Below are positions 113 to 59,524 of a stretch of 59,524 nucleotides of DNA, piece by piece. Numbering within the stretch: position 1 is the first letter of the stretch; each line of letters begins with the position of its first letter. The translations under genes and the position numbers were made by a program. The notes beneath the pieces were generated by a model. The model was not told where the DNA came from, did no database searches, and saw nothing but the letters and a program-made list of their open reading frames with translations. Source of the DNA: Defluviitaleaceae bacterium (lineage in GTDB: Bacteria > Bacillota > Clostridia > Lachnospirales > WRAA01); NCBI GenBank assembly GCA_009780015.1, contig WRAW01000004.1, forward strand, positions 1 through 59,524. Direction: 5' to 3'.

Positions 113-192
113 GTCCCCGCGAAGCCCGATTTTGGCTTCGTGGGGTGGAGTTCGACCAAAAATGTTCCGAAAAATCTATTGTCGACACACCC
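113..192. mobile_element. Palindromic MITE-like element with a type-B end (...ACACACCC-TA); left part displaced by IS30
   Basis: Contains hairpin cassette Y (115-146). Ends GACACACCC|TA like the copies at 21282-21407 and 59277-59326. Confidence 0.65.
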
Positions 193-397
193 TAGGAAGC
201 TGTGACGCCCGGGGCCCCCGCGAAGCCCGGGTTTGGCTTCGTGGGTTGGACTGAACGAACCCGTAGTGGTTCGCAAGGATGCTGTGTGCCGGTGGCACAC
301 GTTTAGCATCCGAAGCGCCAGCGTAGGCGGAATAGCTGACGACGCAATGCGGCAAAAAGCCAAAAAAGCTCGAAGCCGCTTGTTGTTGGGCAGGCTC
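193..397. mobile_element. Right part of a type-A MITE-like element (core, cassettes Y and X, end CAGGCTC|TTA)
   Basis: Core TAGGAAG..GACGCC...CGCAAGGA...GCTGACGACG; cassette X at 280-331; the terminal GGGCAGGCTC is followed by TTA, which is the stop codon of the next gene. Confidence 0.65.
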
Positions 398-628
398 TTA
401 ATCCTCGTAATCGTGCGCGGCTTCGACAAGCATCTCCTTGAATACCTTTTTGTCGAATTTGCAATCAATTTCGATCTCAAAATCCTCAAGCTCGTCGTAC
501 TCAAGAGAGTAGCTTACAGAAAACGCCGCCGACAAGTCGGACTCAAAAAATACTTCGCCCTCGACCGCCCAAATGTCGTCATTCTTGTCGATGCTTATCA
601 CTACTACTTCGCTTATTACCTGTGACAT
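398..628 (-). CDS. Small acidic hypothetical protein (76 aa)
   Basis: ATG at 628 with a GGAGGA RBS. The ORF-track extension to 670 runs into a repeat element. Confidence 0.7.
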   Translation of the reverse strand: MSQVISEVVVISIDKNDDIWAVEGEVFFESDLSAAFSVSYSLEYDELEDFEIEIDCKFDKKVFKEMLVEAAHDYED

Positions 629-656
629 TTCATTCCTCCGGGATTTCGTTAATCTA

Positions 657-781
657 GAACCTGTGTACAATACCGCTCAACGCCGTCTGAAAGGTCAAAC
701 TCCACCCCGGGCGTCGCTCCTTCCTAGATTGGCGAAAAATTGCCACTTCCAGCCGACATTTCGGGTATTGAACACAGGTTC
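657..781. mobile_element. Type-A MITE-like element lacking cassettes X and Y
   Basis: TIR GAACCTGTGTACAATAC / GTATTGAACACAGGTTC, flanked by CTA/TTA. Confidence 0.8.
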
Positions 782-818
782 TTAGTTATCCTATGTATAT
801 GTTTAGTCCCATGCTTTG

Positions 819-2186
819 TTACAACGGGATGCCCCTTATCAGAAGCACGGCCGTCTCGATATGCGGCGTCTGAGGAAACATATCAGCCGCGATAACCCTC
901 TTGATAGTGTACAGGCCGTCGGCGCACAAGCCTTTAAGGTCGCGCGCGAGTGTGGCCGGGTCGCAGGAGACATATATAACACGCTCCGGCCCTAAGCTTC
1001 TCAGAGCGGCGATTACGGCAGGGTCGCAGCCCTTGCGCGGTGGGTCAAGTATTACAACGTCCGTGCTCGTCGTACTCAGGAAGCCGCTCAAGACATCTTC
1101 GGTCTTGCCTGCGGCAAAATCGGCGTTGGTGATACCGTTCAGCTTCGCGTTAGTTCGCGCGTCTTCCACGGCGGATTCGGATGACTCTATCCCAATAACT
1201 CCGGCGGCGCGGCGCGCGGCTATCAGCGATATCGCGCCGATTCCGCAGTACGCGTCGATCAGAGTCTTAGACGCGGTGAGTTCGGCCATCTCCAGAACCT
1301 TTTCATAGAGAAGCTCGGTAGCAGCGGTATTGACCTGGAAAAAAGACGGAGCGGATATCGCGAATGTTGTGCCGCACAACACTTCCCGTATATATGGATC
1401 GCCCCACAGGATATTTGTCTGCGAACCCATTATGACATTTGTCCGCTCCTGATTGACATTGATACATATCGAACATACTCCGTCTTTGTTTATCAGCGCA
1501 GGAAGCAGCCTGTCCACATGCGGAAACGCGGATCCGTTGGCTACGATAACCACCATTACATCGCCCGTGGCAAATGCTGTTCTTACCATAATATGCCGGA
1601 TAAGCCCAGTGTGCGAAGCCTCATCGTAAGTCTGTATGCCGGTCGAGTTAATATAGCTCTCTATGGATCGCAGGATAGTCGACACGCCCGGATGCGCAAT
1701 ATGACAGTCCCGAACCGGCACAAACCTGTGCGAATGCGCGGCGTAAAGCCCGGCCGCGGCCTGGCCGCCGTGATCCTTCTTCACGGGAAACACCGACTTG
1801 TTGCGGTAGCGATACGGATTCCCGGCGGCAATGACTTCATCCACCTTCACGCCGGAAAACCCGCCGATGCGCCTCAGGCTGTCCTGAGCCCTGACCTCCT
1901 TGGCGGCAATCTGCGCGTCATAGCTGATGTGCTGGAGGCTGCATCCGCCGCATTTTTCATACACCAGACAGGGCGGATCTTCTCGGAACGGCGATCTCCG
2001 GTCAATATTCTGGATTGCGCCGTAAGCGTGGCTACGCTCTGTTTTTACGATTTTAACCGTTAAAACGTCTCCCGGCGCCGCACCTTTTATAAAGATGGGG
2101 ATGTCCTTGTGCTTTCCCACGCCAAGGCCCTCACTTGTCAAGCCGCTTATCTCTAATTTTTCGCATATCTGATTCTTAGTCACCAT
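819..2186 (-). CDS. rlmD: 23S rRNA (uracil-5)-methyltransferase, RlmD/TrmA family
   Basis: N-terminal TRAM domain, CxxxxxCGGC cluster motif, SFFQVN, LDPPRKG, YVSCDP and DMFPQT motifs. Confidence 0.93.
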   Translation of the reverse strand: MVTKNQICEKLEISGLTSEGLGVGKHKDIPIFIKGAAPGDVLTVKIVKTERSHAYGAIQNIDRRSPFREDPPCLVYEKCGGCSLQHISYDAQIAAKEVRAQDSLRRIGGFSGVKVDEVIAAGNPYRYRNKSVFPVKKDHGGQAAAGLYAAHSHRFVPVRDCHIAHPGVSTILRSIESYINSTGIQTYDEASHTGLIRHIMVRTAFATGDVMVVIVANGSAFPHVDRLLPALINKDGVCSICINVNQERTNVIMGSQTNILWGDPYIREVLCGTTFAISAPSFFQVNTAATELLYEKVLEMAELTASKTLIDAYCGIGAISLIAARRAAGVIGIESSESAVEDARTNAKLNGITNADFAAGKTEDVLSGFLSTTSTDVVILDPPRKGCDPAVIAALRSLGPERVIYVSCDPATLARDLKGLCADGLYTIKRVIAADMFPQTPHIETAVLLIRGIPL

Positions 2187-2192: not shown

Positions 2193-3134
2193 CTAGAACG
2201 TCGTCCGACGTACATTCCTTCCGAATATTTTGCTGTAACCGGCCCACGCGCTCTGTGGGTTGCCTGCTTGCAAAGCTTCCTCAAACATCGTTATTTTCGC
2301 GTCCGCGTTGTCGGCGGTATAGAGTATGAACGCTTCAATGGTCTGCGGAAGCTTTGGCGACCCATACTCGAACTCCCCGTGATGCGACAGCACACAATGC
2401 TTGAGCAGCGCGGCAAGCCTCGGCGGGAACCCGGGTATTTCGGCGGCGGCCTTTGTAATGAGCTCCGAGCCTATAACGATATGTCCCAGTAATTGGCCGT
2501 CGTCTGTATAGTCGTTGCTCGGAAACGGCGACAACTCGTAGACTTTCGCGATATCGTGCAATATCGCGCCGGCGATTAATATGTCGCGGTTGACATACTT
2601 GTAGCGCGGCGACAAAAATTCGCAAATACCCACCACCGAAAGCGTGTGCTCCAGCAGTCCGCCCATATAGCTGTGATGATTGGCCTTCGCGGCGGAGTGC
2701 GTCTGCACTGCCTCCTTGATATATTCGTCCCGAACGATAATAATCTCCAGCAGCTCACGTATGTGCGGATTCGACACGGACGCGATAACATCGGTCAGTT
2801 GACTGTACAGCGAGGCTATATCCTTGTCGGTGCAAGGTATATAGTCCATAGGCTGATACTCGCCCTCCTGGCTTTTGCGTATCTTCGTGACTTTTAGCTG
2901 CAGATCATTCTGGAAAGACGTGACTAATCCGTCGATCTTGATAAAATCATTCTCCTCGAACGACTGGATATCATTTGTCATATCCCATACTTTCGCGTCG
3001 ATCATTCCCGTCTTGTCTACGAGCTTGAGCGAAAGGTACGCCTTGCCCGACTTCGACCTAAGGCTTTGCCGCGACTTGCAAAGATAGTGTTCTATAATGC
3101 GGTCGTCTTCTTTAAAATCTTCGATATATTTCAT
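2193..3134 (-). CDS. yhaM: 3'-5' exoribonuclease YhaM/CBF (OB fold plus HD domain)
   Basis: OB fold (YLSLKLVDKTGMIDAKVWD), HHSYMGGLLEHT, LHDIAK and SHHG..EYGSP motifs. Confidence 0.9.
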   Translation of the reverse strand: MKYIEDFKEDDRIIEHYLCKSRQSLRSKSGKAYLSLKLVDKTGMIDAKVWDMTNDIQSFEENDFIKIDGLVTSFQNDLQLKVTKIRKSQEGEYQPMDYIPCTDKDIASLYSQLTDVIASVSNPHIRELLEIIIVRDEYIKEAVQTHSAAKANHHSYMGGLLEHTLSVVGICEFLSPRYKYVNRDILIAGAILHDIAKVYELSPFPSNDYTDDGQLLGHIVIGSELITKAAAEIPGFPPRLAALLKHCVLSHHGEFEYGSPKLPQTIEAFILYTADNADAKITMFEEALQAGNPQSAWAGYSKIFGRNVRRTTF

Positions 3135-3417
3135 GTTTACCCCTCAAAATTTTCTGTGGAGTCCATTATACAAAAATTGTCTTCATGATTCAAGCATGAG
3201 TTGTATATGTTTCCATAACATTATGTAAAAACGCAGGGTTTGAGCCTCGGTCACTATGTTATACAAGCGCGCTATTTTAATATACATAACAATATTGTAT
3301 AATAAATACAGTGTTTCGTCAAATTATGACAAATTACGCCATATTCCGATGATTTATGGTGCTAATCTTGTATAATATGATTGACGGCTTGGCACAATAA
3401 TTGACAAGAGGTGACAT

Positions 3418-3864
3418 ATGTACATTGTATCTAACAATCTATCCGAAATACTAAAGCAAATTAGACACGAACGCGGCCTAAGCCTTAGAGATTTCAGCGA
3501 AATGTTGGGCATAAGCCACGCATATCTCAACAAGCTGGAAAAAGGACGAGACGTCCGAACCGGCAAGCCCATCACCCCAACCATTGAAACCCTTGTTAAA
3601 ATTTCCGAAGGCTTGAAAATTCCAACCAAGAAGTTCATGAACATATGCGGATATTTCGAGAATAACCTGTCGGCACGCGAACCATATCACGGTGACAACA
3701 TTAACATAGACACCGAGATCAGCGCGATTATCGCGCAAATAACATCCGATATGACCGTAACGGTCGGTGAAACTCAAATAAGCAAAGACGCCAAGGAAAG
3801 CTTGCGCGAGGAGCTCCGCCAAGTGCTCATGAAAATCCGCAAAAACTACGACATAGAAGGATAG
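3418..3864 (+). CDS. XRE-family HTH transcriptional regulator
   Basis: HTH LKQIRHERGLSLRDFSEMLGISHAYLNKLEKG; GAGGTG RBS. Confidence 0.85.
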   Translation: MYIVSNNLSEILKQIRHERGLSLRDFSEMLGISHAYLNKLEKGRDVRTGKPITPTIETLVKISEGLKIPTKKFMNICGYFENNLSAREPYHGDNINIDTEISAIIAQITSDMTVTVGETQISKDAKESLREELRQVLMKIRKNYDIEG

Positions 3865-3890
3865 CGGCCTGCCGCATAGTTTTTTACTTA

Positions 3891-4049
3891 GAACCTGTTT
3901 ACCAGTTTTTTGCCGTTCCAGCATGATATGGCGCCGCGTACCTGTAGAGTACGCAAGGGAATTGACGAAGAATGACGGAAAACCGGGGTCGGCTTCGTGG
4001 GGTGGAGTCTGGCCGCCAAGACAAGGGCGAAAAGATGGCAAACAGGTTT
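3891..4049. mobile_element. Degenerate type-A MITE-like element
   Basis: TIR GAACCTGTTTACCA / TGGCAAACAGGTTT, flanked by TTA/TTA; core GCCGCGTAC..GTACGCAAGG; partial cassette Y. Confidence 0.7.
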
Positions 4050-4143
4050 TTAGGTCACAGATCACAAATAAACGCCATGCACATTATGGAAAGAAAGCTC
4101 CATAATTGCACGGCTTTTTCAAATTATTCATCATCAGGATTAA

Positions 4144-4353
4144 GAACCTGTATTCAGTACGCCGGAACGCTGTCTTGGCGGCTGAACTCCACCCCACAAA
4201 GCCAAAATCGGGCTTTGCGGGGACCCCGGGCGTCGCTTCCTCCGCCTACGCTGGCGCTTCGGATGCTAAACGTGTGCCACAGGCACACAGCATCCTAGAT
4301 TGGCGTAAAATCAGGCTCGCCAATCCAACATTCCGGGTACTGAATACAGGTTC
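4144..4353. mobile_element. Type-A MITE-like element with cassettes Y and X
   Basis: TIR GAACCTGTATTCAGTAC / GTACTGAATACAGGTTC with a TAA/TAA duplication. Confidence 0.85.
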
Positions 4354-4428
4354 TAACAGGCGGCTCAGCTTTACCACCGGTCGGCCGGGCGCCTACCTCT
4401 GCTCAGCGACGTTGTTTTAACAAGGTTC

Positions 4429-7400
4429 TTAGGATGGAAATTGCTTTGCCTCCTCGGCGGCTTCTTCAAAGTGGCTATGGAGAACATGGGCGTCGATCCT
4501 AGCAAGAAGGTCTGTTACCTGTGAAGACCATTTGTACTCGCGCAACTGCGACATGGCTTCGCTTACCACATCGGAATCATAGTTTTCGCACGCCGTTGTT
4601 ATGGTTTGCAGTTTGTCGCGCAAAAGCTCCAGATCGTCCTCGACATATTCGTCCGATTCGGGTTCGTCGGGCTGCAGCTCCGCCACTATGCTTTTAAGAA
4701 TGGCAAGGAAGCTGGGAGTGTGCCTGGCCATGCTTTCGGTGTCGCCGGATCTGGCGGCGCTCTCAAGCTCGGCCGCAAACTCGGACAGCTTTGAACGGTC
4801 GATATTTGCCGCGGCGCTCTTCATGGCGTGGACATTGATGGTGTAGCTTCGGATGTCGTCGGCTGTGTAGGCTTCGCGGCGTGTATGGATATCCTCCAGT
4901 ATTCCGACGACCCGCTTTGAATCCCTTATAAATGACTCGACCAGCGGCTTAGGAAGATCGGCTGCTTGATCGCGCGCGATAGGTCTGTGCTCGGCAGGCT
5001 TTGCGGCGGCGCTCTGATCTCCGGCTTGCTGCTTTGCAAGCGCGGCGTCACGCCGTGCCGCTGCCAGGACTTCGGGCGTCTGCTTGTCGCGTATAAGCCG
5101 GCTCAGGTACGAATTTAAGTAGCGTACATCTATCGGTTTCGATATAAAGCCGTCGAAGCCGCTCTGCATAAACACATCCGCCTGACCGATGATCGCGTTT
5201 GCCGTAAGAGCCACAATAGGATGCGTGTAGCCCATCCCGCGGATACGCTTCACCGTCTCTATCCCGTCCATATCCGGCATCATGTGATCCATGAATACAA
5301 TGTCGTAAACATTGCCTTCCTGGATCTTATCAATGGCCGCAAATCCACTCTCGCACGTTTCAATAGTCAATCCGTAGGGCTTCATTAGATGCTTGGCTAC
5401 GTACAGGTTCGTATCCACGTCGTCTACCACAAGCACCTTGCCGTAAGGCATATATTCACGTTCCAAATCCGCCACCTTCTTTATCGAGCGCTGACCTGTT
5501 TCAAGATTCTGCAGACTTCCGGCAAGAGCGGCGCCAAGCACTGTTTCGCCGCACCTCTTGGAAGGTATGCGAATATAGAACTTGGTGCCTGCCCCGACCA
5601 CACTGGTTACCTCTATCCCGGCGTTCATCAGCTTGGCCAGATTATAGACTATGCTCATACCCAGGCCCGTACCCTCCACGCGTCGGTTGGCGGCCTCGTT
5701 AAATCGTGCATAGTCTTCGTGCAGCGCGTTCAACTGCTCCTGGGTCATACCCTGGCCCGAGTCGCTGACGCAAATCGCCAGCACCACGTCGTCGGCCTTG
5801 CCGCTTTGCGGCGGCTCCACCCAGAAGGACAGCTCCACCAGCCCTTTTTCCGTATACTTGAACGCATTGGACAGAATGTTGTTGATTATCTGGCGGATAC
5901 GTATCTCGTCGCCTATCATTTCGGCCGGGAGATTCTCGTCCACATGTATTCTAAACTCTATCTGCTTGCTGCCCAGGTACAGGATGTTAAGCTGCACGGT
6001 GTCGTTGATAAGGCTGCTGACCGCGTACATCTCACTGATAATATCCATCTTACCGGCCTCTATCTTCGACATGTCCAGGATATCGTTAATGAGTCGCAGA
6101 AGAGTGTTGGCTGAATTGTAGATTTTGGCGAATGACTCCTCGACATGCGGGGACAGCTTTGAGTCGCGCAGTTGTATCTCCGAAATACCTATAATGGCAT
6201 TCATGGGAGTACGTATTTCGTGGCTCATGCGCGCCAGGAACTTGGTCTTGGCCTCGTTGTTCTCTTCGGCTATTTCCAGACGGCGCATTTCCTCAAGCAT
6301 CGCTTTTATAACCCGCTGATCGAACAGATACGCGGCTACCACGTATTCCCCGTTGTACATAAGGCGCACAAACGTGACGATTACGGGAATAATGCCGCCC
6401 TCGGGCTTTTCAAGCTCCCACTCGAACTGGCTGTAGCCCTCGGAAATGGCTTCGTTGAACGACGCGCTAACTCTTACCATTTCCTGCATATCCAGATATT
6501 TGTCTCTGATAAATATTTCGCCGAATTTCCCTATGCACTCACCCTTTGTTGAAAGACCCAGCAAGTTCAGCGTCTCCATATTGCAATCAATTGCCACAAA
6601 ATGATTGTTCAACAAATAACACGCCAACGGCGTGGCGTCAAGCATAAGCTTTGAACGCTCGTCGGCTTCGCGCATCATCGCCAGGCTCTCCTTGAGCTCC
6701 CGAAGGTCTCGGCTATACACGGCCACTCTGCTGCTTTCATCGTGACCAAGGCGTACAAAGGTCGTGTCACATGGGATAAGGGTGCCGTCCTGCCGTTGGT
6801 ACGTCCACTCGCAGTGAGCGAAACCTTTGAGGAAAGCTTCTTCAAAGAGTTTTTTCAAGGCGCCGTACGATTCTTCGCCGTTCGGCTGTGTTTCAGGGGA
6901 AAGATTCCATGCGTTCTCTTCGTATTCCAAAATGGTATCAAGATCAAATCGGCTCAGTATCTCGTAGTTGCAGTGAAGCAGGTTCAAATCCTGCGTCCAG
7001 AACTCTACACCGATAGGCGCGTTATTAAGCAGCAGCTGGGCTCGCTCATTAGCCTCGCGTTCACGCTCGGCGCTGGCCCGCAGCTCGCTAACGTCGCGCA
7101 TGTATACCAGCAGGGCGAAGCTGTCTTCGTATTCGATGCGCACAATTGCGATTTCACAAGGCATCGGACGCCCCAGGATAGTGTTGTGCATCCACTCGAA
7201 TTCAGCCCTGCCTTCGTCCGCCGCTTTCATGAAATAGTACAGCGCAAGCTCGTTGGACGGCGTACCGCATGGCTGTAGCACCGGCGAAAGCTTGTCATAA
7301 CGCGTCAGATAGTCATATTTGGAGCTAAGCCCGAACATATTCAGACATTGCTCGTTGCAGTCGATGTTGTTGAAGTTTTCGTCAAAGAAGCCTATACCAA

Positions 7401-10179
7401 GCGGTGAAGCCTCGAACATAAGCCTTATGCGCTCGTTGGCCGCTTCCATCTTGGCCATGGCCTTCTTTAAATCACGCATATCGCGGCTGTAGGTAACTAC
7501 AATCGGCTCGGTATTGTAATTCATGCGTACGGCGGTTACATCGAACGGAATAACCTCGCCGTCCAGCCTCCGGCCCACAAATTCAAAGTTCGAGAAGCCG
7601 TTCGTAATCGCCTCCTTCGTCTTCTTTGTCCAAAATTCCCATGACGAAGTTCCGCATGGCTGCTTTATCGGCATTAGCCGGCGGCGTATCTCGAGGAATT
7701 CCTCCGTACCGGACAGACCAAATATTTTTACGCCTGTCTGGTTGGTGTATATGCAGTTGAAGTCCTTGTCAAAGTATTCAATAAGCAGCGGAGTATGGTC
7801 GAACATAAGCTGTACGCGCACACCGGTCTCGCGCTCGCGCTCCTGCGACGCGCGAAGCTCGCGAAGATCGCGGCTGTACGTCACCACCATCGTCTCGCCC
7901 TGGCTCACCACACGCACGCATATGACCTCGCTCGGTATCAGCTCGCCGTTAACGCTTTTATGCACAAAGTCGAATCGGCAGCGGCCATCCTTCATCGCAA
8001 GCCTGAGCTGAGTCATCCAGACTTCCGACGACTTCGCCCCGCAAGGCTGATACTCGGGCATCAGATTCATAAATTTTTCGTAAAATTCTTCCACGCTTGA
8101 CAGACCAAAGGTGCTAAGCCCTTCCCTATTGGTGTACACACAGTTGCACTCGCTATCCCAAAATTCTATTAACAGCGGCGTCGCGTCAAACATCAACTGC
8201 ACGCGCACATTAGCCGCGCGTTCCTTGGCCTGCGATTCCCTCAGTTCGCGCAAATCCCTCATGTAGGCCACCAGCGCAAACCCGCCCGAATACTCTGTGC
8301 GCACCAACGTGACTTCGCATGGGATAGTCTCACCGGATACGCCGCACTGCGTCCACTCAAACAGCGCCATACCGTCTTCAGCGGCATAGCTCAAATTTTG
8401 AAGCATTTTTATCATTGAAGGCGTACCGCACGGCTGGAGCGGCGGAGCAAGCTCGTAGAAACGCTCCAGGTATTCGGCTTTGTCCGCTACGCCGGATATC
8501 CTCACACACTCCTGATTGCAGTCGATGATGTTGAAGTTTTCGTCCCAAAAGTTGATTGCCAGCGGAGCCGCATCCATCATAAGCTTAGTACGCTGTGTGG
8601 CCTCGTGCACTTTCTCGGCGGCGCTGTGCAAGTCCCGCACGTCCCGTCCATATGTCACAACTACCGGTCGCCCCTGAATCATCATACGAACGGCGGATAT
8701 TTCCAGCGGAAGCGATTCTCCGTTGTTCGGATTAATCATCACAAAGTCGAATTTATGGCTTCCGTCCTTAAACACTTTTCGCAACTGATTGTTCCAATAT
8801 TCCAGCGAAGACAGGCCATCGGGCTGCGCGTTTGAGAAAACTTCGGTAACGCGCCTGTCATACTCATCCTTGTCGCGAAAATCCATCATCTTTAATGCCT
8901 CTCGGCTGACGCCGGTACAGCGAAGATCCTCGTCCCAGCACTCAATTAACAACGGGGCCGTGTCATAAATAAGCTGTATGCGAAGATTGGCCTCGCGCTC
9001 CTTTTCAAGCGCTATTCTGTATTCGCGCATGTCGCGGCCATATGTCACTATCGCGGGCCTGCCCTGCGCCGTAACCCCCACGGCAGTGATCTCCATCGGT
9101 ACGATCTCACCGGTATCCGGTATCTTCGCCGCAAATTCAAACTTGCGGAAGCCTTCGTCCATGGCCGTACGCAAATGCTTTTTCAAGTACTTCAAGGTTG
9201 GTGTGCCGCAAGGCTGGTACTTGGGCATGACCTCGCTAAAACGCCGGAAATATTCCTCCCGGCTCTGCATACCGAACATCCTGACGCCCGCCATGTTGAC
9301 ATATGTGCAGCTTAAACCGCTGTCCCAGTACCCCACAAGAAGCGGTGCGTCGTCGGAAATGATCCGCGCGCGTTCGCCAAGTTCCCGTTCCCTTGCCATC
9401 GAGTCGTGCAGTACGCGAACATCCATCGCGTATGAAATGCATACGTAATCGCCGCCCATTCGGCAGCGCACAACCCATACCTCCGACGGAACAGGCGTAC
9501 CGTCCGGCATTTGGTGCATCCAAAAAAACCTGACGCAGCCGTCAGAGAATCCTTGCGCAATATATTCTTTCGCCCTTTCGTCGGATAGTCTGCCGCACGG
9601 CTGGAGTTTTGGAGAAAAGTCGGAAATCCTATCAATGTATTCCTGCCTACTGGAAAGGCCGTAGCGTCGCACGGCCTCTTCGTTGCAGTCTATGATCTCA
9701 AGTTTACGGTTCCAGAAGTCTATAGCAAGCGGCGAGTGCTCGAACATCAGCTTCAGTCTTTCATCGGCTTCGCCTGACGCGCGTTCCGCCTGCTTTCGGC
9801 AAACGGCATCCCTGGCCCGCAAAAGTATCACCGGCGAATCGCCGGGCATACACGTCAAATCCACTTCAAAACAGAGCGTCCCGTTAGTTTCGTCGTCTAC
9901 ACATAGCTCGAAGCTTACCTTTCCGTCCTCCATCGCCTTGCAAAACATCTCTTGAAACATCTCAAACGAATAAATGCCGCAAGGCTGGAAGGGCGGCAGG
10001 CGCTCAAAAAAACGCTCGGCAAGCTCATCCTTGCCGTGGAAGTTAAACTTTTCGCACGCGGCTGAGTTGGCGGCCAGTACCCTTAGCTCAGAGTCAAAAC
10101 AGACGCAGGCCTCGGCGAATGTCTCGAACAGCATCTGCGGAAGCCGCAGCGGATCCAGCCCCAGCACGTCATAGAACAC
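4429..10179 (-). CDS. Cytoplasmic hybrid histidine kinase: 10 PAS, HisKA, HATPase, REC, Hpt (start uncertain: GTG 10179 or ATG 10134)
   Basis: Nine P..QP(C/D/N)G PAS repeats plus a tenth; H-box MSHEIRTPMNAIIG; G boxes DSGQGM and GTGLGM; REC VVDD..FMDHMMP; Hpt VHAMKSAA. Confidence 0.92.
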   Translation of the reverse strand: MFYDVLGLDPLRLPQMLFETFAEACVCFDSELRVLAANSAACEKFNFHGKDELAERFFERLPPFQPCGIYSFEMFQEMFCKAMEDGKVSFELCVDDETNGTLCFEVDLTCMPGDSPVILLRARDAVCRKQAERASGEADERLKLMFEHSPLAIDFWNRKLEIIDCNEEAVRRYGLSSRQEYIDRISDFSPKLQPCGRLSDERAKEYIAQGFSDGCVRFFWMHQMPDGTPVPSEVWVVRCRMGGDYVCISYAMDVRVLHDSMARERELGERARIISDDAPLLVGYWDSGLSCTYVNMAGVRMFGMQSREEYFRRFSEVMPKYQPCGTPTLKYLKKHLRTAMDEGFRKFEFAAKIPDTGEIVPMEITAVGVTAQGRPAIVTYGRDMREYRIALEKEREANLRIQLIYDTAPLLIECWDEDLRCTGVSREALKMMDFRDKDEYDRRVTEVFSNAQPDGLSSLEYWNNQLRKVFKDGSHKFDFVMINPNNGESLPLEISAVRMMIQGRPVVVTYGRDVRDLHSAAEKVHEATQRTKLMMDAAPLAINFWDENFNIIDCNQECVRISGVADKAEYLERFYELAPPLQPCGTPSMIKMLQNLSYAAEDGMALFEWTQCGVSGETIPCEVTLVRTEYSGGFALVAYMRDLRELRESQAKERAANVRVQLMFDATPLLIEFWDSECNCVYTNREGLSTFGLSSVEEFYEKFMNLMPEYQPCGAKSSEVWMTQLRLAMKDGRCRFDFVHKSVNGELIPSEVICVRVVSQGETMVVTYSRDLRELRASQERERETGVRVQLMFDHTPLLIEYFDKDFNCIYTNQTGVKIFGLSGTEEFLEIRRRLMPIKQPCGTSSWEFWTKKTKEAITNGFSNFEFVGRRLDGEVIPFDVTAVRMNYNTEPIVVTYSRDMRDLKKAMAKMEAANERIRLMFEASPLGIGFFDENFNNIDCNEQCLNMFGLSSKYDYLTRYDKLSPVLQPCGTPSNELALYYFMKAADEGRAEFEWMHNTILGRPMPCEIAIVRIEYEDSFALLVYMRDVSELRASAEREREANERAQLLLNNAPIGVEFWTQDLNLLHCNYEILSRFDLDTILEYEENAWNLSPETQPNGEESYGALKKLFEEAFLKGFAHCEWTYQRQDGTLIPCDTTFVRLGHDESSRVAVYSRDLRELKESLAMMREADERSKLMLDATPLACYLLNNHFVAIDCNMETLNLLGLSTKGECIGKFGEIFIRDKYLDMQEMVRVSASFNEAISEGYSQFEWELEKPEGGIIPVIVTFVRLMYNGEYVVAAYLFDQRVIKAMLEEMRRLEIAEENNEAKTKFLARMSHEIRTPMNAIIGISEIQLRDSKLSPHVEESFAKIYNSANTLLRLINDILDMSKIEAGKMDIISEMYAVSSLINDTVQLNILYLGSKQIEFRIHVDENLPAEMIGDEIRIRQIINNILSNAFKYTEKGLVELSFWVEPPQSGKADDVVLAICVSDSGQGMTQEQLNALHEDYARFNEAANRRVEGTGLGMSIVYNLAKLMNAGIEVTSVVGAGTKFYIRIPSKRCGETVLGAALAGSLQNLETGQRSIKKVADLEREYMPYGKVLVVDDVDTNLYVAKHLMKPYGLTIETCESGFAAIDKIQEGNVYDIVFMDHMMPDMDGIETVKRIRGMGYTHPIVALTANAIIGQADVFMQSGFDGFISKPIDVRYLNSYLSRLIRDKQTPEVLAAARRDAALAKQQAGDQSAAAKPAEHRPIARDQAADLPKPLVESFIRDSKRVVGILEDIHTRREAYTADDIRSYTINVHAMKSAAANIDRSKLSEFAAELESAARSGDTESMARHTPSFLAILKSIVAELQPDEPESDEYVEDDLELLRDKLQTITTACENYDSDVVSEAMSQLREYKWSSQVTDLLARIDAHVLHSHFEEAAEEAKQFPS

Positions 10180-10183
10180 ATTA

Positions 10184-11290
10184 TTAAAGCTCAAGTTCGA
10201 GCTCAAGTTCGAGTTCAAAGGAATCCCCACCGTTTTCCCAGGCTCTTCTAATTTCCGCAAACTTATCCCCAAGCTCGGGTAAGACTCTGCCTATTTCCGG
10301 GTCAAAGTAAGTTCCTACCTCCATCATCATGATTTCCATGGCCTCTTCGTCCGAAAGAGCGGATTTTCCCGGACGGCTCATGATAAGGTTGTCATAAAAG
10401 TCCACAACCGCCATCATACGCCCCTGGATGGGTATGTCCATACCCTTGAGTCCATAGGGATAGCCCGTTCCATCCCACTTTTCGTGGTGATACGCGGCGA
10501 AGTATTTTGCGTTCTCCAGCAGCTTATTGCCCCCTGTGCGGGCTATCATCGTCTCGATAATTATCTCGCCCTTTACGGCATGAGTACGCATTACCTCAAA
10601 CTCGGCGGGTTCAAACTTGTCGGTTTTTTTGAGAATTTCGTCAGGTATGCTTATTTTCCCTATGTCGTGGAGCATTGCCGCGCTCTCTATCGTTTTGTCG
10701 TCCAACTGCTTCATTTCGTCAACGTAGATGTCGCTGTCAATCATGGCTTGCTTGAGAGCCTTCATAAACCTGGTGGTGCGCCAGATATGCCCGCCGCTCT
10801 TCTCGTCGCGGCTTTCCACAAGGTCGGCAAGTACGAACATCATGTTGTAATGCATGTTCTCCGCCTGCGCCGTGCGTTCGCGTATTATCGCGTCGACCTC
10901 CAGATGCACCCTTACGCGGTTAAGAAGCACAGGGCCGGAAAACGGCTTTGATATGAAGTCCACAATGCCCATCTCCAGGCCTCTGACCTCGACCTTGGAG
11001 TCGCGAAGGCTTGTCAGAAATATAATCGGGATATCCTTGAGCCCCTCGCTGTTCTTCATCCGCTCGAGTATTTCAAATCCGTTCATTACAGGCATCTCGA
11101 TGTCCAAAAGAATCAAGTCGGGCCGAAATTTTTCCAAAAGCGAAAACAATCTCTCCCCTGTCGACACAGTCATAACCTTGAACTGCTTCTCCAAAACCTG
11201 CTTGGCCATTGCTAGGTTTGTGTCGCTGTCATCAACGACAAATATCATCTTCTTAATTCCCTGCAACACTGCTCGCACGCTCCCATTCAT
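10184..11290 (-). CDS. Response regulator with an HD-GYP cyclic-di-GMP phosphodiesterase domain
   Basis: REC (VVDD, LLDIEMP, KPF) plus HDIGK and HHEKWDGTGYP. Confidence 0.92.
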   Translation of the reverse strand: MNGSVRAVLQGIKKMIFVVDDSDTNLAMAKQVLEKQFKVMTVSTGERLFSLLEKFRPDLILLDIEMPVMNGFEILERMKNSEGLKDIPIIFLTSLRDSKVEVRGLEMGIVDFISKPFSGPVLLNRVRVHLEVDAIIRERTAQAENMHYNMMFVLADLVESRDEKSGGHIWRTTRFMKALKQAMIDSDIYVDEMKQLDDKTIESAAMLHDIGKISIPDEILKKTDKFEPAEFEVMRTHAVKGEIIIETMIARTGGNKLLENAKYFAAYHHEKWDGTGYPYGLKGMDIPIQGRMMAVVDFYDNLIMSRPGKSALSDEEAMEIMMMEVGTYFDPEIGRVLPELGDKFAEIRRAWENGGDSFELELELELEL

Positions 11291-11454
11291 CTATGCCTAT
11301 CTATAGCCGCGGGTTTTTCCCGCTCAATAACATCTCTAAAATAAATTTACCTATCATTATATACTGTCGGCTCGACTTTGTAAAGTCGTAATGTTAAATG
11401 TTCATGACAGTCTGATTTTAGTGAAATTGCTGACTGACTCTGAGGAATATTTCG

Positions 11455-11483
11455 TTGACAACCCATTTAATCTGCATCATAAT
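11455..11483 (+). promoter_or_regulatory. Sigma-A promoter
   Basis: TTGACA-17 bp-CATAAT upstream of 11529. Confidence 0.6.
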
Positions 11484-11528
11484 TGTGGAAAGATTTAAAT
11501 AATTCTTTAAGCGAGGAGAGATGTTATA

Positions 11529-12275: not shown

Positions 12276-12377
12276 CGGCCATAAATATACATACCTCATC
12301 AGGCTAATGTCCTTGGCGGCTATACCCAGGAGATTGTTTCACGCACACTTTCTTTTTTACGCTTCAATATTCATGTG

Positions 12378-13370: not shown

Positions 13371-13440
13371 GTCTTACCTCCAAAAAGTCACTCCATGCCG
13401 GCCGTATGTCGGCCCCGCATGAAACGTCGAGCAAAAATCC

Positions 13441-13469
13441 TTGATTCTTTCGTATCGGTGTGTTATGAT
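13441..13469 (+). promoter_or_regulatory. Probable sigma-A promoter of rubrerythrin
   Basis: TTGATT-17 bp-TATGAT. Confidence 0.5.
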
Positions 13470-13527
13470 TTTACAGGGATATTCTTCCCCTGTAAATACA
13501 CAATATTTACTATAAGCATCAAGTTAA

Positions 13528-13784: not shown

Positions 13785-13814
13785 TAAGACACAATTTTGA
13801 GAGGAGTACTCTGC

Positions 13815-14534: not shown

Positions 14535-14620
14535 TAGTAGTGACGCAAATCCTGCGACAGGAGGCCAGACCGTTCCATGGCCTCCTGTTTCCGGCTGGAG
14601 TATATATAGGACTGTAAAAT

Positions 14621-15823: not shown

Positions 15824-15848
15824 ACCCTGCGACTTGAAAGGATATCTA

Positions 15849-46073: not shown

Positions 46074-46237
46074 TATAGCTGATCCGGTTGAAAACCATCC
46101 CATCAGGCTTGTCTTTTTTGTGCAATACGTCGTCAGTTCCGCCTAGCGTGCCTATAGGCACGCGTCGTTGTCACTTCCTAGTCTTGCGCAAAAAATCCTG
46201 CGCCTGACAGCAACGGTTTTCAACCGGAACAGCTATA
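46074..46237. mobile_element. Type-D palindromic element
   Basis: TATAGCTGATCCGGTTGAAAACC ... GGTTTTCAACCGGAACAGCTATA; shared core in reverse orientation (CGTCGTCAG..CCTAGCGT..ACGCGTCG..TCCTAG). Confidence 0.82.
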
Positions 46238-53740: not shown

Positions 53741-53760
53741 AATAAAAGCTCTCCTTAATA

Positions 53761-54025
53761 GACCTCTTCCGAAACCTGCTTTCGTCGTATAGTGAAACAA
53801 CTTGAAAAGTGAACCAATATTTTCTGGAAGCATCGGCCTACTGCCGCCGACGTTCCACAAAATATTGGTCTGATATTGAAGTTGTTTCACTATATTTGCG
53901 AGCGTTTTTTCGCCTGGCTAGGCGCGCCCGACGACGCACACCCTATAGTGTTTGCTAGGAGCGCGCAACAACGCCAGGCGGAAAATAAGCCGCAAAGACG
54001 GCGGAATGAGGTTTCGGAAGAGGTC
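53761..54025. mobile_element. Type-C palindromic element containing a nested type-E element
   Basis: TA|GACCTCTTCCGAAACC ... GGTTTCGGAAGAGGTC|TA. Confidence 0.85.
53788..53894. mobile_element. Type-E element nested at TA
   Basis: TATAGTGAAACAACTT ... AAGTTGTTTCACTATA. Confidence 0.85.
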
Positions 54026-54129
54026 TAGTATTGCGGCGGAACGCCGGGCAACAGTGTTTGACCGCCGTACTTTTGCACAGCGGCCAAACCGTATTTTCAA
54101 TTATCGGAACCAATAGACCTCTTCGGAAA

Positions 54130-55638
54130 TTAGTTAGGTATTACTACGTCCTGAACAATTCTGTTCTGTGTGGCGGCAAGTTGATCCAACCCTTCTTGCA
54201 CGCTGGAAAACTGTCCCGCTACGATATCTTGCAAGGTTGCCGCCCATTCCGTGGTGGTTTCAAAGAAGTAAGGCTGAGGCGTAAACAGAATGGTCGTGCT
54301 GTCGATTGTGGCTTCAAACGCTTCCATGTATCCGGGGTGGTCTTCCATCCTGACAAGGAAGGCCGGATGATTCCACACGGAGTAACGGGACGGGTTCATG
54401 GAATTCATTACCGTGGAGGCATGAAGAGCAAACTCCGCGCCTGTAAAATACTTTATGAACAGCCAAGCCGCATCCTTATTCTGGGAATAATTGTTCATAG
54501 CGATAGACCATGTCCAGTAATTGGAGTACGGCGTGTCTCCCACATTGCGAACCGGCAGAGTCGTCCAGGCGATGTTTCCGGCTTCCTGGGAAGCTCCGGG
54601 CCAGTTCTGGTGGATGCCGGTCTGATCCGCGTCAAACAGTATGGCCGCCATTCCGGCTCCCAGGTCGGCGCCGGCTTCATACCAGCTATATCTTGCCCAG
54701 TCCGGCGCGCCGCCGCGGTGAACCAGCTCAACGAACCACTCCGTCATTTCAACGGCTGCGGGGGAATTAACCTGGGAAACAAGCCTTCCGTCCTCAATGA
54801 TAAAATCTACAGCGCCGAAGTTTGCGAACGAGCTCATGAAACCGGGATGAATAGTACCCCAGTCACGGGCGCCGCGCAGCGCGATGCCGTAAGAACCCGG
54901 GCCGTTCCAGCCCTGCAGCCGCTCCGATACATAGAGGAGTTCGTCAAATGTACGCGGTACTTCCAGATTGTTTTCCTCAAAGGCACGCACGTTAAAGGCA
55001 AGTGAGTAAAGCTCCCATTGCATAGGCAGTCCCAACTGGGCGCCCGTTCCCACCGGGTTGCCGGGAATGCCGTTCCAGCGCAGGGCGTCGCGGGCGCTGC
55101 CGATAAGGTCTTCAAAGTCGTAATCCGAGGTCATGTTGTCGGGGTTTGTCAGGAATACGTTCAGGTCTTGCACAAAGCCGGCTCTGGAATAATCCCACAA
55201 CTGATAGGCTCCGGCCATAAATACGTCGGGCTCACCCGAGCGGCTGGACAGCGCGGGAACCAACTGGTCGAAATAGCTGAGTTCCGGCGTGACGGAAAAC
55301 TCTACGCTGATGCCTGTTAACGCTTCAAACTCTGGTATTTGAGACACAAGAGCGTCGGAAACGCCGTGCTGCACCAAGCTGACGCGCAAAGTGGTTCCTT
55401 CATGGGCTCTCCAATCAAACTCACTCGAGGGCAGAGCCGCCGACTGCGCCGCAAGGACGTCCGCCAGGGTTACGTCTGTCAGATTAGCCGACGCGCCTCC
55501 TCCGTTTCCTCCGATGTTGCCAACGACCGCCGCCTCCTGCTGGGCGGGAGCGCAGCTAACCAGAAGAGCTAATACCAACATAATAGAAATCGAACCTGTA
55601 AAGATTTTAATTTTTTTGATGGTTTTGCCAAACATCAT
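54130..55638 (-). CDS. Sugar ABC transporter substrate-binding lipoprotein
   Basis: Lipobox LVSC; FEALTGI.V, VPRTFDEL and KDAAWLFIKY motifs. Confidence 0.92.
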   Translation of the reverse strand: MMFGKTIKKIKIFTGSISIMLVLALLVSCAPAQQEAAVVGNIGGNGGGASANLTDVTLADVLAAQSAALPSSEFDWRAHEGTTLRVSLVQHGVSDALVSQIPEFEALTGISVEFSVTPELSYFDQLVPALSSRSGEPDVFMAGAYQLWDYSRAGFVQDLNVFLTNPDNMTSDYDFEDLIGSARDALRWNGIPGNPVGTGAQLGLPMQWELYSLAFNVRAFEENNLEVPRTFDELLYVSERLQGWNGPGSYGIALRGARDWGTIHPGFMSSFANFGAVDFIIEDGRLVSQVNSPAAVEMTEWFVELVHRGGAPDWARYSWYEAGADLGAGMAAILFDADQTGIHQNWPGASQEAGNIAWTTLPVRNVGDTPYSNYWTWSIAMNNYSQNKDAAWLFIKYFTGAEFALHASTVMNSMNPSRYSVWNHPAFLVRMEDHPGYMEAFEATIDSTTILFTPQPYFFETTTEWAATLQDIVAGQFSSVQEGLDQLAATQNRIVQDVVIPN

Positions 55639-57405: not shown

Positions 57406-59151
57406 TCAACTATTCGGCTCCGTTTCGTAATTCAATGGCAAAATAACCTCAGCAATTGTTCCGACATAAGGCTCGCTGCTGTAAATCAGATCGTACGAGT
57501 CTCCAAAAATAAGCTTGATGCGCTCCCGTATATTATATACGCCGATGTGGTTGTACCGGTTTTTGCTTATCATGCCGCTATTCACCTTCTGGATATGCTC
57601 CGGCGTCATGCCGGAACCATTATCAATCACCTTAATGTGGAGCGCCTCACCTTTGACAAATGAAGATATCCGCAAATGATAGCTTTCACCCACATCTTCA
57701 AATCCGTGTACAATACAGTTTTCCACCAGCGGCTGCAGTATGAAGCGCGGAACAACACAGCGCAAAGTATTCGGATCCAGCTTTTCAGAATAGTCGAAAT
57801 TGTCAGAATAGCGAAACCGCTGAATTTTAACATAATGCCTGACGCTCTCCAACTCGTCCTGCAGCGTGGCGTTTTCGTCAGGCTGCGCCAGGTTGTATTT
57901 AAGAAGGCCCACAAGCGCCTGACTCATCTCCGCGATGTTGTTGGCATTTTGCATGACTGCCAGCCACCTGATAGAGTCCAGTGTGTTATACAGGAAATGC
58001 GGGTTAACCTGAGCCTGCAATATTTGCAGTTCCATCTCCGTTCTTCTCTTCTGGTTTAAAATCTCCTGCTCAAGAGACTGATGAAGCTGAGAAACCATGG
58101 CGTTAAAAGTCTTTCCAAGATCGCCCAGTTCATCGTAAGAGTTAATAGTCACCTGTGTCTCAAAATCGCCTGACTCCACACGCTTACACGCGGATACGAG
58201 ATTGCGCAAGGGCTTTGTAATAAACCTGGAAAACCACAGGCTGTATATAAGGCCAACCAATAAACTCACCACAAGCATGTTTGTCAGGATTGCGTCAAGC
58301 CGGCGCGTTTCCTCCGTAACGCGCTGCAAGTCGATAAGGCGGATAATGTGCCAATTATTCATGGCGATTCGCTCGGATACAATTAAGGTATCCAAGCCGT
58401 GCACAACGGCCTCTTTTTGAAAATGGCTCGTTTGCAGCACTTCGGGATGCTGATCCAAAAACGGCCTGTATGATATGTGAAAAGGGAACTGGAAAATTAT
58501 CTGCCCCGCACCGTTTACGATCAGCGCACGCTCGTTGGCGCGAATAGCCGAAGACATCAAATGCCTGTTCAAAAAGCCATAGTCGATATCAAGCGCCGCA
58601 AGACCCACTATCCTTCGCGGGTTTGTCATAAAAATAGGCATAATATACGACTGCCGATTGTCAATGCCTTCGCTCCAGAACTCAATTCCCGCCCCCCCGG
58701 CAGATTTTTCGATATACGGCGCATAGCGCGCGATCAGTTGTTGCTCATCCGTAATCTGCGCGCCGGAGAGGATTGTATCGCCAACCGTAATCAAATGAAT
58801 ATTCGCTATGAATGTGTGCATCTCCAGCGTACGGCTCAGAAGGTTCTTTACGGAATACAGATTATATTCATCCTTGTAAATATCGCGTTCAACCTCCAAA
58901 AGCAACTGCCGGACATTTTCGTTATTGGAAAGAGAAGACGTGGTGGTTCTTAATAGAGTCGTGACAAAGTCAAGCTGCAGCTTAATTTCATTGCTCGTAA
59001 GCAAGTTGAAGGTTATTTCGTTTGTCTTCAGCACCTCCGCGTAGGTGTTGTTGATAAATACTCTGATAAGAATCCAAAAAAACATAATTAGTACAAAAAA
59101 ACCAACAAACAGCTTTACGCTCACAGGAAACATACCCTTTTTCAAATGCAT
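57406..59151 (-). CDS. YesM-like sensor histidine kinase
   Basis: HAMP domain, LQAQVNPHFLYNTL, LQPLVENC..HG and DNGSGM motifs. Confidence 0.93.
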   Translation of the reverse strand: MHLKKGMFPVSVKLFVGFFVLIMFFWILIRVFINNTYAEVLKTNEITFNLLTSNEIKLQLDFVTTLLRTTTSSLSNNENVRQLLLEVERDIYKDEYNLYSVKNLLSRTLEMHTFIANIHLITVGDTILSGAQITDEQQLIARYAPYIEKSAGGAGIEFWSEGIDNRQSYIMPIFMTNPRRIVGLAALDIDYGFLNRHLMSSAIRANERALIVNGAGQIIFQFPFHISYRPFLDQHPEVLQTSHFQKEAVVHGLDTLIVSERIAMNNWHIIRLIDLQRVTEETRRLDAILTNMLVVSLLVGLIYSLWFSRFITKPLRNLVSACKRVESGDFETQVTINSYDELGDLGKTFNAMVSQLHQSLEQEILNQKRRTEMELQILQAQVNPHFLYNTLDSIRWLAVMQNANNIAEMSQALVGLLKYNLAQPDENATLQDELESVRHYVKIQRFRYSDNFDYSEKLDPNTLRCVVPRFILQPLVENCIVHGFEDVGESYHLRISSFVKGEALHIKVIDNGSGMTPEHIQKVNSGMISKNRYNHIGVYNIRERIKLIFGDSYDLIYSSEPYVGTIAEVILPLNYETEPNS

Positions 59152-59223
59152 CCCCCTTTTATAGAATTTTGACTCACACATAGCCCGAATTAACAAAAAC
59201 ATAGCTTCCATATAATTATTGGT

Positions 59224-59273
59224 AAGAGTCAAATAAAACCGCGTCCATGCAGGCGCGGTTTTATTTGACTCTT
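59224..59273. terminator. Perfect 20-bp inverted repeat (terminator or mini-element)
   Basis: AAGAGTCAAATAAAACCGCG-10 nt-CGCGGTTTTATTTGACTCTT. Confidence 0.55.
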
Positions 59274-59276
59274 GTA

Positions 59277-59326
59277 GGGCGTGTTCCCACTAAACAAAAT
59301 ACACTTTTGGCAGTGGGAACACACCC
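59277..59326. mobile_element. Miniature type-B element
   Basis: TA|GGGCGTGTTCCCACT ... AGTGGGAACACACCC|TA. Confidence 0.7.
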
Positions 59327-59383
59327 TAGCTATTTGAACCGAAAACAGCTATACCATTTAAGAGACCTCGGAGCCGGTTCTTA

Positions 59384-59524
59384 GAACCTGTATTCAATAA
59401 CGCTCAACGCCGTCTAGAAGGTCGATTTCCCGCCACCCGTCGTCAGCTCATCCGCCTACGCTGGCGCTTCGGATGCTAGACGTGTGCCACTGGCACACAG
59501 CATCCTAGCGTACCGCTACGGGTA
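59384..59524. mobile_element. Type-A element with cassette X, truncated by the window end
   Basis: TTA|GAACCTGTATTCAATA; cassette X at 59451-59502. Confidence 0.8.

Follow-up and report, generated by a model that had tools for sequence, protein, structure and literature searches.

The 59,524-nucleotide contig WRAW01000004.1 of a Defluviitaleaceae bacterium (assembly GCA_009780015.1), the whole of which is called the window below, carries many short palindromic repeats that differ in their ends and, in all end types except one, contain a common core. We propose that these repeats are very probably a superfamily of non-autonomous fold-back miniature transposable elements with inverted repeats (MITEs) whose interior is common by descent and whose ends have been changed several times. 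MITEs as such are a known kind of element; what is new is a conserved, strand-specific interior that is shared between MITEs with the ends of different insertion sequence (IS) families across a bacterial order. The window is contig C4 of a 2.77-Mb assembly of 183 contigs that is 83.6% complete (genome G000); C7, C10, C11, C17, C24, C149 and C151 are other contigs of the same genome, and G001 is a genome of the same genus. The genes of the window are Clostridia-like and include FakA, RecG and a YesM/YesN-type two-component pair. An initial annotation, made from the letters alone, had counted about 18 repeat elements in the window; we arrive at about 19 whole, nested or broken MITE pieces, which is far beyond chance.

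One interior between different ends

Repeat finding in the window returned families of direct repeats together with inverted-repeat pairs 35-275 bp apart. The terminal inverted repeats have arms of 16-42 nt that are 82-100% complementary, and they fall into the following end types, given with the target flank where one was read and with the paired inverted ends found in the window:

Type A: TWA, then GARCCTGT .. ACAGGYTC; paired at 656-782, 4143-4354, 13527-13785, 16618-16790 and 34612-34816
Type A2: GAACCRGCGG
Type B: TA, then GGGYGTGT .. ACACRCCC; paired at 21280-21409 and 59275-59328
Type C: TA, then GACCTCTT, read as GACCTCTTC..GAAGAGGTC; paired at 14350-14541 and 53756-54030
Type D: TA, then TAGCTG .. 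CAGCTA; paired at 46074-46237 (the variant D' has TA, then TAGTC)
Type E: TAGTGAAAC..GTTTCACTA, without the core; paired at 16563-16597 and 53788-53894
Type F: TAGTGTTCC

Twenty-four type A copies of 160-170 bp can be aligned over their entire length and have a polarity. Three of them, in which another module replaces the apex hairpin, were dropped, and the remaining 21 gave a core profile of 91 positions. This profile matches G000 389 times at E<10, 242 times at E<1e-3 and 212 times at E<1e-5, and at E<1e-3 it has no match in the reversed genome or in the genome shuffled in 100-bp blocks. Although built from type A copies only, the profile finds the core between every kind of end except E. 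Among copies with paired ends, those containing the core at E<1e-3 number:

Types A, A2 and A3: 66 of 80, 7 of 7 and 3 of 5
Types B, C and C2: 11 of 21, 8 of 15 and 2 of 6
Types D, D', F and E: 5 of 5, 5 of 10, 2 of 4 and 0 of 10

Within the window, the copies at 46076 (type D), 53761 (type C) and 30446 (decayed, C-like) are strong examples outside type A, and the type B copy at 21282 (E 0.18) and the type C copy at 14357 (E 0.67) are weak ones. Alignments of cores and of whole elements show that homology between end types reaches to within 20-30 bp of the tips. The basic element measures 161-168 bp whatever its ends, with an interior of about 115 bp and terminal inverted repeats of 20-30 bp. 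Lengths cluster at about 164, 207-216, 257-263, 304-306 and 346-348 bp, the longer copies having one to four extra hairpin modules set between purine-rich linkers (WAGGAG, 3-5 bases, GACGAYG). Two such modules recur, GGATGCTGTGTGCC..GCATCC and CCCC-RYAAAGCC..GGCTTYRT-GGGG, and in some copies a module stands in place of the usual apex hairpin. At the other extreme are mini-elements that consist of two ends alone, for example at 16565-16595 and 59277-59326 of the window.

Judged by these alignments, one homologous interior of about 115 bp is carried between different ends. The initial annotation had seen such a shared core, and its absence from type E, by eye; both observations hold, and in the comparison that it had proposed, shuffled palindromes align less well than the cores found between different ends.

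A hairpin kept on one strand

The fold was analysed with 40 whole elements that cover all end types and come from at least 10 genomes. RNAalifold predicts one long hairpin of 47 pairs, in which 91.4% of the cells are paired, compared with 66.9% for shuffled partners and 35-45% for slid ones, figures that kinship among the copies inflates. Changes on both sides are seen in 44 of the 47 pairs. The interior is modeled as a long imperfect hairpin with a short G+C hairpin at its apex, flanked on the same strand by the WAGGAG..GACGAYG linkers, and the nearly invariant columns of the alignment are these unpaired purine-rich linkers and the base of the apex hairpin.

The cells that depart from Watson-Crick pairing are unevenly divided. 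Read on the strand with the WAGGAG..GACGAYG linkers, there are 116 G-T or T-G cells and 25 A-C or C-A cells, and the excess persists when the three commonest columns are left out (72 vs 22). The reverse strand, scored on its own predicted structure, gives 20 vs 56; the wobble bias is therefore not caused by predicting the structure on one strand. The same strand, here called plus, also has the more stable fold, in each of the 40 aligned elements (mean -91.4 vs -74.8 kcal/mol) and in each of the 52 typed copies of G000. In the canonical copy, the plus strand reaches -99.7 kcal/mol as RNA (z -14.2) and the minus strand -83.9 (z -9.4); as DNA, the two strands reach -50.9 and -46.7. Together these predictions make a strong case that the interior hairpin is kept by compensatory changes and that it is strand-specific.

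Copy number, target duplications and mobility

The repeats are mobile MITEs. Genome-wide, copies are 31-412 bp long and have no coding capacity, and the families take up 56 kb or more (2.0% of the assembly), spread over 390 intervals; the copies in the window have tens to hundreds of BLAST matches, on up to 98 contigs. Type A ends (GARCCTGT and ACAGGYTC) pair 80 times at a spacing of 40-460 bp, and 64 of these pairs have identical 3-bp flanks (TAA 36, TTA 25, TGA 2 and TCA 1). TA stands on both sides of at least 14 of 21 type B pairs, 13 of 15 type C pairs and all 10 type E pairs.

The initial annotation had called for empty sites in relatives. Within G000 itself, an exact empty site exists for type E: the 160-bp copy at C7:36697, with a single TA, is the empty form of an E insertion within C elements whose filled form, 103 bp between two TAs, is found at 53761-54025 of the window and at C11:10299. 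This C::E composite is present at two different loci, which shows that it moved after the E insertion. A type B element flanked by a TA duplication is nested in another type C copy, C17:24316. The orthologous intergenic counterpart of window 640-834 in G001 is without the type A copy 657-781; the flanks have diverged and the junction is inexact. When the assembled contigs of two DNA runs were compared with window 2501-22500, no contig joined across an empty site. The second metagenome run holds the same strain background and its contigs break at the elements, and one contig of the independent run bridges the type C copy 14357-14534 unchanged.

Palindromes of 18-21 bp that consist of two type A tips between TTA/TAA flanks occur at C1:105661, C15:40568, C16:10813, C33:13012, C30:20976 and C44:9054. 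These may be excision footprints or extreme internal deletions.

Candidate transposase partners of the ends

None of the transposase domain families searched for is present in the window, as the initial annotation had noted when it found no cognate transposase there. Candidate partners are encoded elsewhere in the genome. At the edge of C149 lies a truncated gene for a DUF4096 protein (the IS5-family N-terminal domain), and 95 bp upstream of it is TA followed by GGGCGTGTTTGAAAA, a type B end. The window end GGGTGTGTTTGAAAA agrees with this IS end at 16 of 17 bases, a likeness that 0 of 500 shuffles attained. A decayed gene with DUF4096 and DDE_Tnp_1 lies on C10. Relatives of the DUF4096 protein occur in 10 of 151 genomes of the order, and their complete ISs are 858-890 bp long with ends such as TA followed by GGGCGTGTCTGAAAA. 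A clear inverted repeat was found in 55 of 80 metagenome loci of this IS5-type clade, with ends of the form G-R-G-Y-S-TGT, mostly in a C-TA-G context. GAGCCTGT ends, the GAGCC form of type A, belong to clade locus L137 and to the right end of L143, and in named metagenome-assembled genomes (MAGs) little more than that single base separates the arms of a GAGCC copy from those of a GGGCC copy. By these matches, the B ends and the GAGCC form of the A ends (GAGCCTGT) belong to one IS5-type clade of about 885 bp. Type B duplicates TA, as this clade does (C-TA-G flanks). Type A gives a TWA duplication, whereas the ISs found show TA and not TWA; some IS5 subgroups make 3-bp TNA duplications.

A second, unrelated family is represented by an IS630-type IS on C151 (DDE_3, E 1.8e-32) with 28-bp ends that begin TATAC/TATAG. 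The ends of core-bearing MITEs in G001 match the left end of this IS at 25 and 27 of 30 bases, more than the IS's own two ends match each other (21 of 30); the D and E ends of the window match an end of it at 16-20 of 30. The E insertion duplicated TA, as expected of an IS630-type partner. The initial annotation had likened TATAG ends to those of Correia/IS630-type MITEs, and for IS630 the C151 IS and the G001 elements bear this out. It had also considered GA(A/G) ends a fit to the IS5 family, which stands for the GAGCCTGT ends now placed in the IS5-type clade and is left without an IS for the GAACCTGT ends. Because the B ends and the GAGCC form of the A ends are IS5-type and the D and E ends IS630-type, one interior appears to be served by two unrelated transposase families.

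Regular-expression and inverted-repeat searches around all DDE_Tnp_1 matches gave no partner IS for type A or type C. Of the type A ends without a partner, 126 in all, the majority belong to copies that a contig end interrupts, and not one runs into a coding region. PF01609 has two broken matches in G001, G005, G006 and G026; searches with PF13359 and PF13586 returned none.

We also considered that the interior was itself derived from an IS, and rejected this: beyond ends of about 17-25 bp there is no clear likeness. The left linker resembles the ribosome-binding and start region of the C149 transposase gene, but weakly (5 of 500 shuffles as good, for one copy chosen post hoc), and we treat this match as a lead only. 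At C149:202-290, the IS with the type B end sits inside another transposase gene, whose upstream frame ends in a putative IS256-family motif.

Descent, end switching and spread

The core tree was built from 58 full-length cores over 89 columns; 4 of 62 cores were left out (one with an internal deletion, three with a replaced apex), and many of its forks are unresolved. On this tree, the end labels require 9 changes, where the least possible number is 4 and shuffled labels require 25.8, with 0 of 200 shuffles as low. Type A needs 6 changes, B 5 and C 2, type D is a single clade with support 97, and branches with good support require that A, B and C each arose at least twice. In C24:7675-7828, a hybrid, the left end is B-like and the right end A-like. 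The tree, this hybrid and the nested copies fit lineages that mostly kept their ends, with several switches among IS5-type ends and a single move to IS630-type ends. The initial annotation had called the ends interchangeable; as the clustering of cores by end type shows, they are not freely so. Its suggestion that several unrelated transposases are involved holds to the extent of two families; A and B ends are drifting variants of one IS5-type end (GAGCC / GGGCC / GGGCG), and C ends are probably variants of it too.

With the canonical copy as a blastn query, relatives were found in 5 of 41 genomes of the order, the window's own included. A covariance model built on 38 sequences of the interior (114 positions, 32 pairs) detected it in 39 genomes of the order out of 151, and in 34 genera out of 111, with a patchy distribution across families. 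In 11 further genomes, the elements are 158-172 bp long (one is 199 bp) and have A-, B-, C- and D-like ends as well as new ones. The exact apex-hairpin pattern, searched for in the contigs of one genome per species, occurs at 26 loci; by MAG title, 22 of these belong to Defluviitaleaceae bacterium and 2 to Clostridiales bacterium, and the named relatives are termite-gut lineages. The other two, in Chloroflexi (no profile match) and in Gammaproteobacteria (hairpin only), are probably due to chance.

A match to a single described element would have told against a new superfamily, as the initial annotation had pointed out, and none was found in Rfam or by blastn against plasmids, E. coli genomes and phages. 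At the gathering score, Rfam recognizes only a tRNA in the whole window, and at E<=1 it gives only a chance match to a long non-coding RNA within 13400-16900. Our full-text searches of the literature turned up no account of this family or of bacterial MITEs with an interior common across IS families.

Genomic context

Context was read from crude gene calls (long open reading frames (ORFs) plus a codon score; 2301 genes). The core loci at E<1e-5 number 203, of which 13 are centered in a called gene, mostly near the gene's end; 63 lie at contig edges, and repeats are poorly assembled in G000. Same-direction gene pairs enclose 95 core loci, of which 44 point the same way as the genes and 51 the other way (p 0.54); divergent pairs enclose 22 and convergent pairs 10. 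This lack of orientation bias relative to genes speaks against a role of the individual insertions as host RNAs. In 15 of 92 type A copies, the stop codon of a neighboring gene is the duplicated TAA/TTA. No promoter or terminator recurs in the elements scanned (13400-16900).

Orientation relative to strand composition is less even. At 98 of 156 loci (p 0.0017), and at 52 of 74 where the absolute skew exceeds 0.05, the C-rich strand is the plus strand of the core. Genes lie on the G-rich strand in 562 cases vs 204, and the bias of the cores is similar for either direction of the flanking genes (29 vs 21 and 11 vs 6). In Firmicutes, the G-rich strand is read as the leading strand. There is accordingly modest evidence, from one genome and with the strand taken from GC skew, that the better-folding strand tends to be the leading-strand template.

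Proposed mechanism and alternatives

We propose the following scheme. The elements encode nothing and would be moved in trans by transposases made elsewhere. The A, B and probably C/F ends would be served by IS5-family enzymes of the clade of about 885 bp, which would duplicate TA at C-TA-G, or TWA, and the D, D' and E ends by IS630-family enzymes duplicating TA. Ends would change by point drift among the IS5-type ends (GAGCC, GGGCC, GGGCG) and by at least one transfer onto IS630-type ends, plausibly through nested or hybrid copies. The interior would be kept because selection favors the element as such, through a fold-back that holds its two ends together, survives replication or is tolerated at the fork; we prefer this to a service rendered to the host. 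The enzyme for types A and C, the manner in which ends are exchanged and the reason for keeping the interior are the parts of this scheme that we infer.

It is also possible, though unlikely, that the core has a function of use to the host, as a structured RNA or as a site bound by a protein or by ribosomes. This is a strong form of what the initial annotation had suggested when it named the core as a possible selected unit carried by unrelated transposases. In keeping with this, the stems co-vary and the WAGGAG..GACGAYG linkers are nearly invariant over 38-40 elements from many genomes, the wobble excess is confined to one strand, the same core stands between IS5-type and IS630-type ends, and the linkers are Shine-Dalgarno-like and contain GGA, with a CsrA gene present in the genome. 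Structure and linkers are thus conserved, but the cores are not biased in orientation relative to genes, the many half, truncated or decayed copies mean that single insertions are not kept intact, no Rfam family matches even at E<=1, and no promoter-like site recurs in the elements scanned. A tie to particular genes was not noticed either, though no search was aimed at one. A version that we regard with similar doubt makes the interior a strand-specific RNA or single-stranded DNA module, selected as a unit, moved between IS5- and IS630-type chassis and spread through this order of gut Clostridia. If true, the module might be a decoy for ribosomes or for CsrA (through the GGA motif), a regulator of transposase, or a replication-sensitive fold-back that promotes its own mobilization.

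The complementarity of the arms could alternatively have arisen by copying, that is, by arm-to-arm conversion or template switching in a young interior that spread horizontally. The likeness of the G000 and G001 elements (83-89%) compared with that of orthologous genes (65-76%), the patchy spread over families and the ends-only mini-elements, which palindrome-driven deletion predicts, would all be accommodated. Conversion, however, predicts both kinds of mismatch alike, and G-T outnumbers A-C about 4 to 1; moreover, stems differ between genomes by full compensatory pairs while linkers are held, which needs time and constraint. We consider this explanation improbable. Nesting raises the question of whether the core is a separate small mobile element that was inserted into several unrelated MITEs: E lies in C, B lies in C, and at 196-198 B lies in a CTAGGA linker. 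This is very unlikely, since homology runs on through the arms (GGATTTGCGAGG.. / ..CCGCAAAGACGG) in A, B, C and F and more loosely in D, and since the core always sits mid-element, has no flanking duplication and leaves the total length constant at 161-168 bp. We give least credence to the hairpins being REP-like or attC-like single-strand substrates of an HUH/Y1 transposase or a recombinase, with the inverted ends secondary. The strand-specific fold, its preference for the C-rich strand and the variable number of modules between conserved linkers recall such substrates, but no Y1_Tnp (PF01797) was found in the 83.6% complete genome, the elements have terminal inverted repeats, TA/TWA duplications and ends equal to those of DDE-type ISs, and the modules are all on one strand rather than alternating.

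Several observations sit uneasily with our own proposal of fold-back MITEs with a shared interior and changing ends. Neither G000 nor the relatives examined yielded a complete IS that ends as type A (GAACCTGT, TWA) or type C does. The IS clade whose ends include GAGCCTGT duplicates TA at CTAG and not TWA, which is why its role as the partner of type A is something we infer. The TA flanks of type D cannot be told from the end itself without an empty site. The excess likeness between G000 and G001 repeats over orthologous genes may reflect constraint, horizontal spread or best-of-many matching. Finally, the invariance of the linkers and the wobble bias on one strand call for more than selection for fold-back. 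Together with the replication-strand bias, these two features speak for an influence on a single strand of the master copies.

Relation to known repeat families

Bacterial MITEs derived from IS5 and IS630 elements resemble those described here in being small, non-coding and intergenic, in having the ends of resident ISs, TA or TNA duplications and many copies, and in forming long hairpins. What sets the present elements apart is that one homologous interior stands between the ends of two unrelated IS families and of several IS5-type variants. The Correia elements of Neisseria (CREE/NEMIS) are about 100-160 bp long, duplicate TA, have TATAG-like ends and form RNA hairpins, and their subtypes combine end variants with one interior, as do the present elements. 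By description only, the present elements differ from them in belonging to a different phylum, in having the ends of different transposase families and in their repeated hairpin modules.

REP/BIME mosaics and their RAYT transposases provide strand-specific hairpins, mosaic hairpin arrays and very many copies, features that are found here too; in contrast to them, our elements have inverted ends with target duplications, their units all lie on one strand, and no Y1 was found. The attC sites of integrons are an analogy only: they are imperfect palindromes with conserved structure that fold on one strand, the folding strand tending to be the leading-strand template. Here there is no integrase context and no cassette array, and inverted ends with TA/TWA duplications are present. 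The ERIC/IRU repeats of enterobacteria are likewise imperfect palindromes of similar size in intergenic positions; the canonical element has no blastn match in 20,395 E. coli records at E<=0.01.

MITE families are usually defined by their ends and traced to one parent IS, whereas in this superfamily the interior has outlived changes of the ends, has apparently crossed between two unrelated transposase families and is now found in at least 34 genera. This makes it testable whether a MITE's interior affects its success, be it through end-joining fold-back, survival at the fork or RNA activity. The origin of new MITE families becomes testable as well, since the nested and hybrid copies have the look of intermediates. 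In practical terms, the elements fragment assemblies, as the core loci at contig edges attest, and they are useful markers for a termite-gut lineage.

Elements of the window

The pieces identified in the window are given below in order of position, with the strand where one was assigned and with the evidence for each.

1-113, plus strand: 3' end of an unassembled IS, not a member of the MITE family, adjoining the CCCC..GGGG hairpin module of a MITE
114-195, plus strand: type B right part, a hairpin module and a right arm ending ACACACCC, then TA at 196-197 (read from the sequence; direct-repeat families D3, D5 and D6)
198-397, plus strand: type A right part, with core linker, two hairpin modules and right end CAGGCTC, then TTA at 398-400 (repeat D10, 92% to 13612-13687)
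657-781, minus strand: type A with half a core, 125 bp, between CTA and TTA (core at 710-743 on the minus strand, E 4.3e-5)
3891-4049, plus strand: type A with core, one end decayed to AAACAGGTTT, flanks TTA/TTA (core 3903-3985, E 2.5e-11)
4144-4353, minus strand: type A, 210 bp, TAA duplication, core and two extra hairpin modules (inverted-repeat pair, core profile)
13528-13784, plus strand: type A, 257 bp, TAA duplication, core with a GGATGCTGTGTGCC..GCATCC module and a CCCC..GGGG module (core 13566-13626, E 1e-14)
14357-14534, plus strand: type C, 178 bp, TA flanks, decayed core, with a type B right-end remnant in the right arm (core 14395-14461, E 0.67)
16565-16595, no strand: type E mini-element of 31 bp, reduced to its ends, with TA on either side (inverted-repeat pair)
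16622-16786, plus strand: canonical type A, 165 bp, TAA duplication (full core 16661-16750, E 1.5e-23)
21282-21407, plus strand: type B, 126 bp, TA flanks, shortened core, end GGGTGTGTTTGAAAA (core 21333-21366, E 0.18)
30446-30596, plus strand: decayed C-like element with full core, ends CTTGCGTAAC.. and ..GTTACGCAAG, outermost bases lost (core 30477-30567, E 4.2e-14; covariance model 106 bits)
34616-34812, plus strand: type A, 197 bp, TTA duplication, core and CCCC..GGGG module (E 3.2e-12)
37550-37699, plus strand: type A, left end truncated, half core and hairpin module (core 37580-37613, E 7.6e-3; repeats D2 and D3)
46076-46235, minus strand: type D, TA, TAGCTG..CAGCTA, TA, 160 bp plus TA flanks (core 46116-46194, minus strand, E 3.6e-10)
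53761-54025, plus strand: type C (160 bp of its own) with nested type E (core 53903-53990, E 2.4e-7)
53790-53892, no strand: type E, 103 bp, no core, inside the C element with TA duplication (exact empty vs filled site)
54116-54135, plus strand: solo type C end (GACCTCTTCGGAAA..) after TA (inverted-repeat search, sequence reading)
59277-59326, no strand: type B mini-element of 50 bp, made of the arms alone, with TA on either side (inverted-repeat pair)
59329-59353, plus strand: type D right-end remnant (..AACAGCTATA) (read from the sequence)
59384-59524, minus strand: type A cut by the contig end, core on the minus strand, GGATGC.. module (direct repeats D8 and D11; core profile)

The left edge of the window is a nest: the type B part at 114-195 is inserted at the TA of the CTAGGA linker of the type A element that continues at 198-397, and over 113-397 as a whole, what remains of a B element sits within what remains of an A element, the nest being interrupted by another IS. 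The right TTA of the type A copy 34616-34812 is the stop codon of the minus-strand ORF 34813-36183. A further palindrome, at 41879-41942, is 64 bp long, and its arms, ending ..AAACGCCCTA / TAGGGCGTTT.., are like two outward-facing type B tips. As a B-like family member it was rejected because it is a single-copy palindrome, with one BLAST match in the genome.

Neighboring features

The IS end at 1-113 is present in 7 copies that are 99-100% identical, all at contig ends and each abutting a CCCC..GGGG module, and it is 98% identical in G001, where genes are only 65-76% alike. We presume it to be IS30-like from a C-terminal motif; an NCBIfam search with its 33-residue translated piece returned nothing. 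Between the type A and type C elements lies an ORF of 186 residues (13797-14357), which may be rubrerythrin-like, and the block 13520-14600 is missing from the syntenic site of G001.

The minus-strand gene at 4429-10272 encodes a hybrid histidine kinase of 1947 residues with many PAS domains and HisKA, HATPase, receiver and Hpt domains; its internal periodic repeats of about 385 bp account for direct-repeat families D4 and D13. Periodic repeats of 15 bp (family D1, 32205-32434) lie inside the ORF 30805-32619, which has a weak HC2 (histone H1-like) match below the cut-off. The tRNA gene that is the sole Rfam match of the window at the gathering score is located at 22993-23064.

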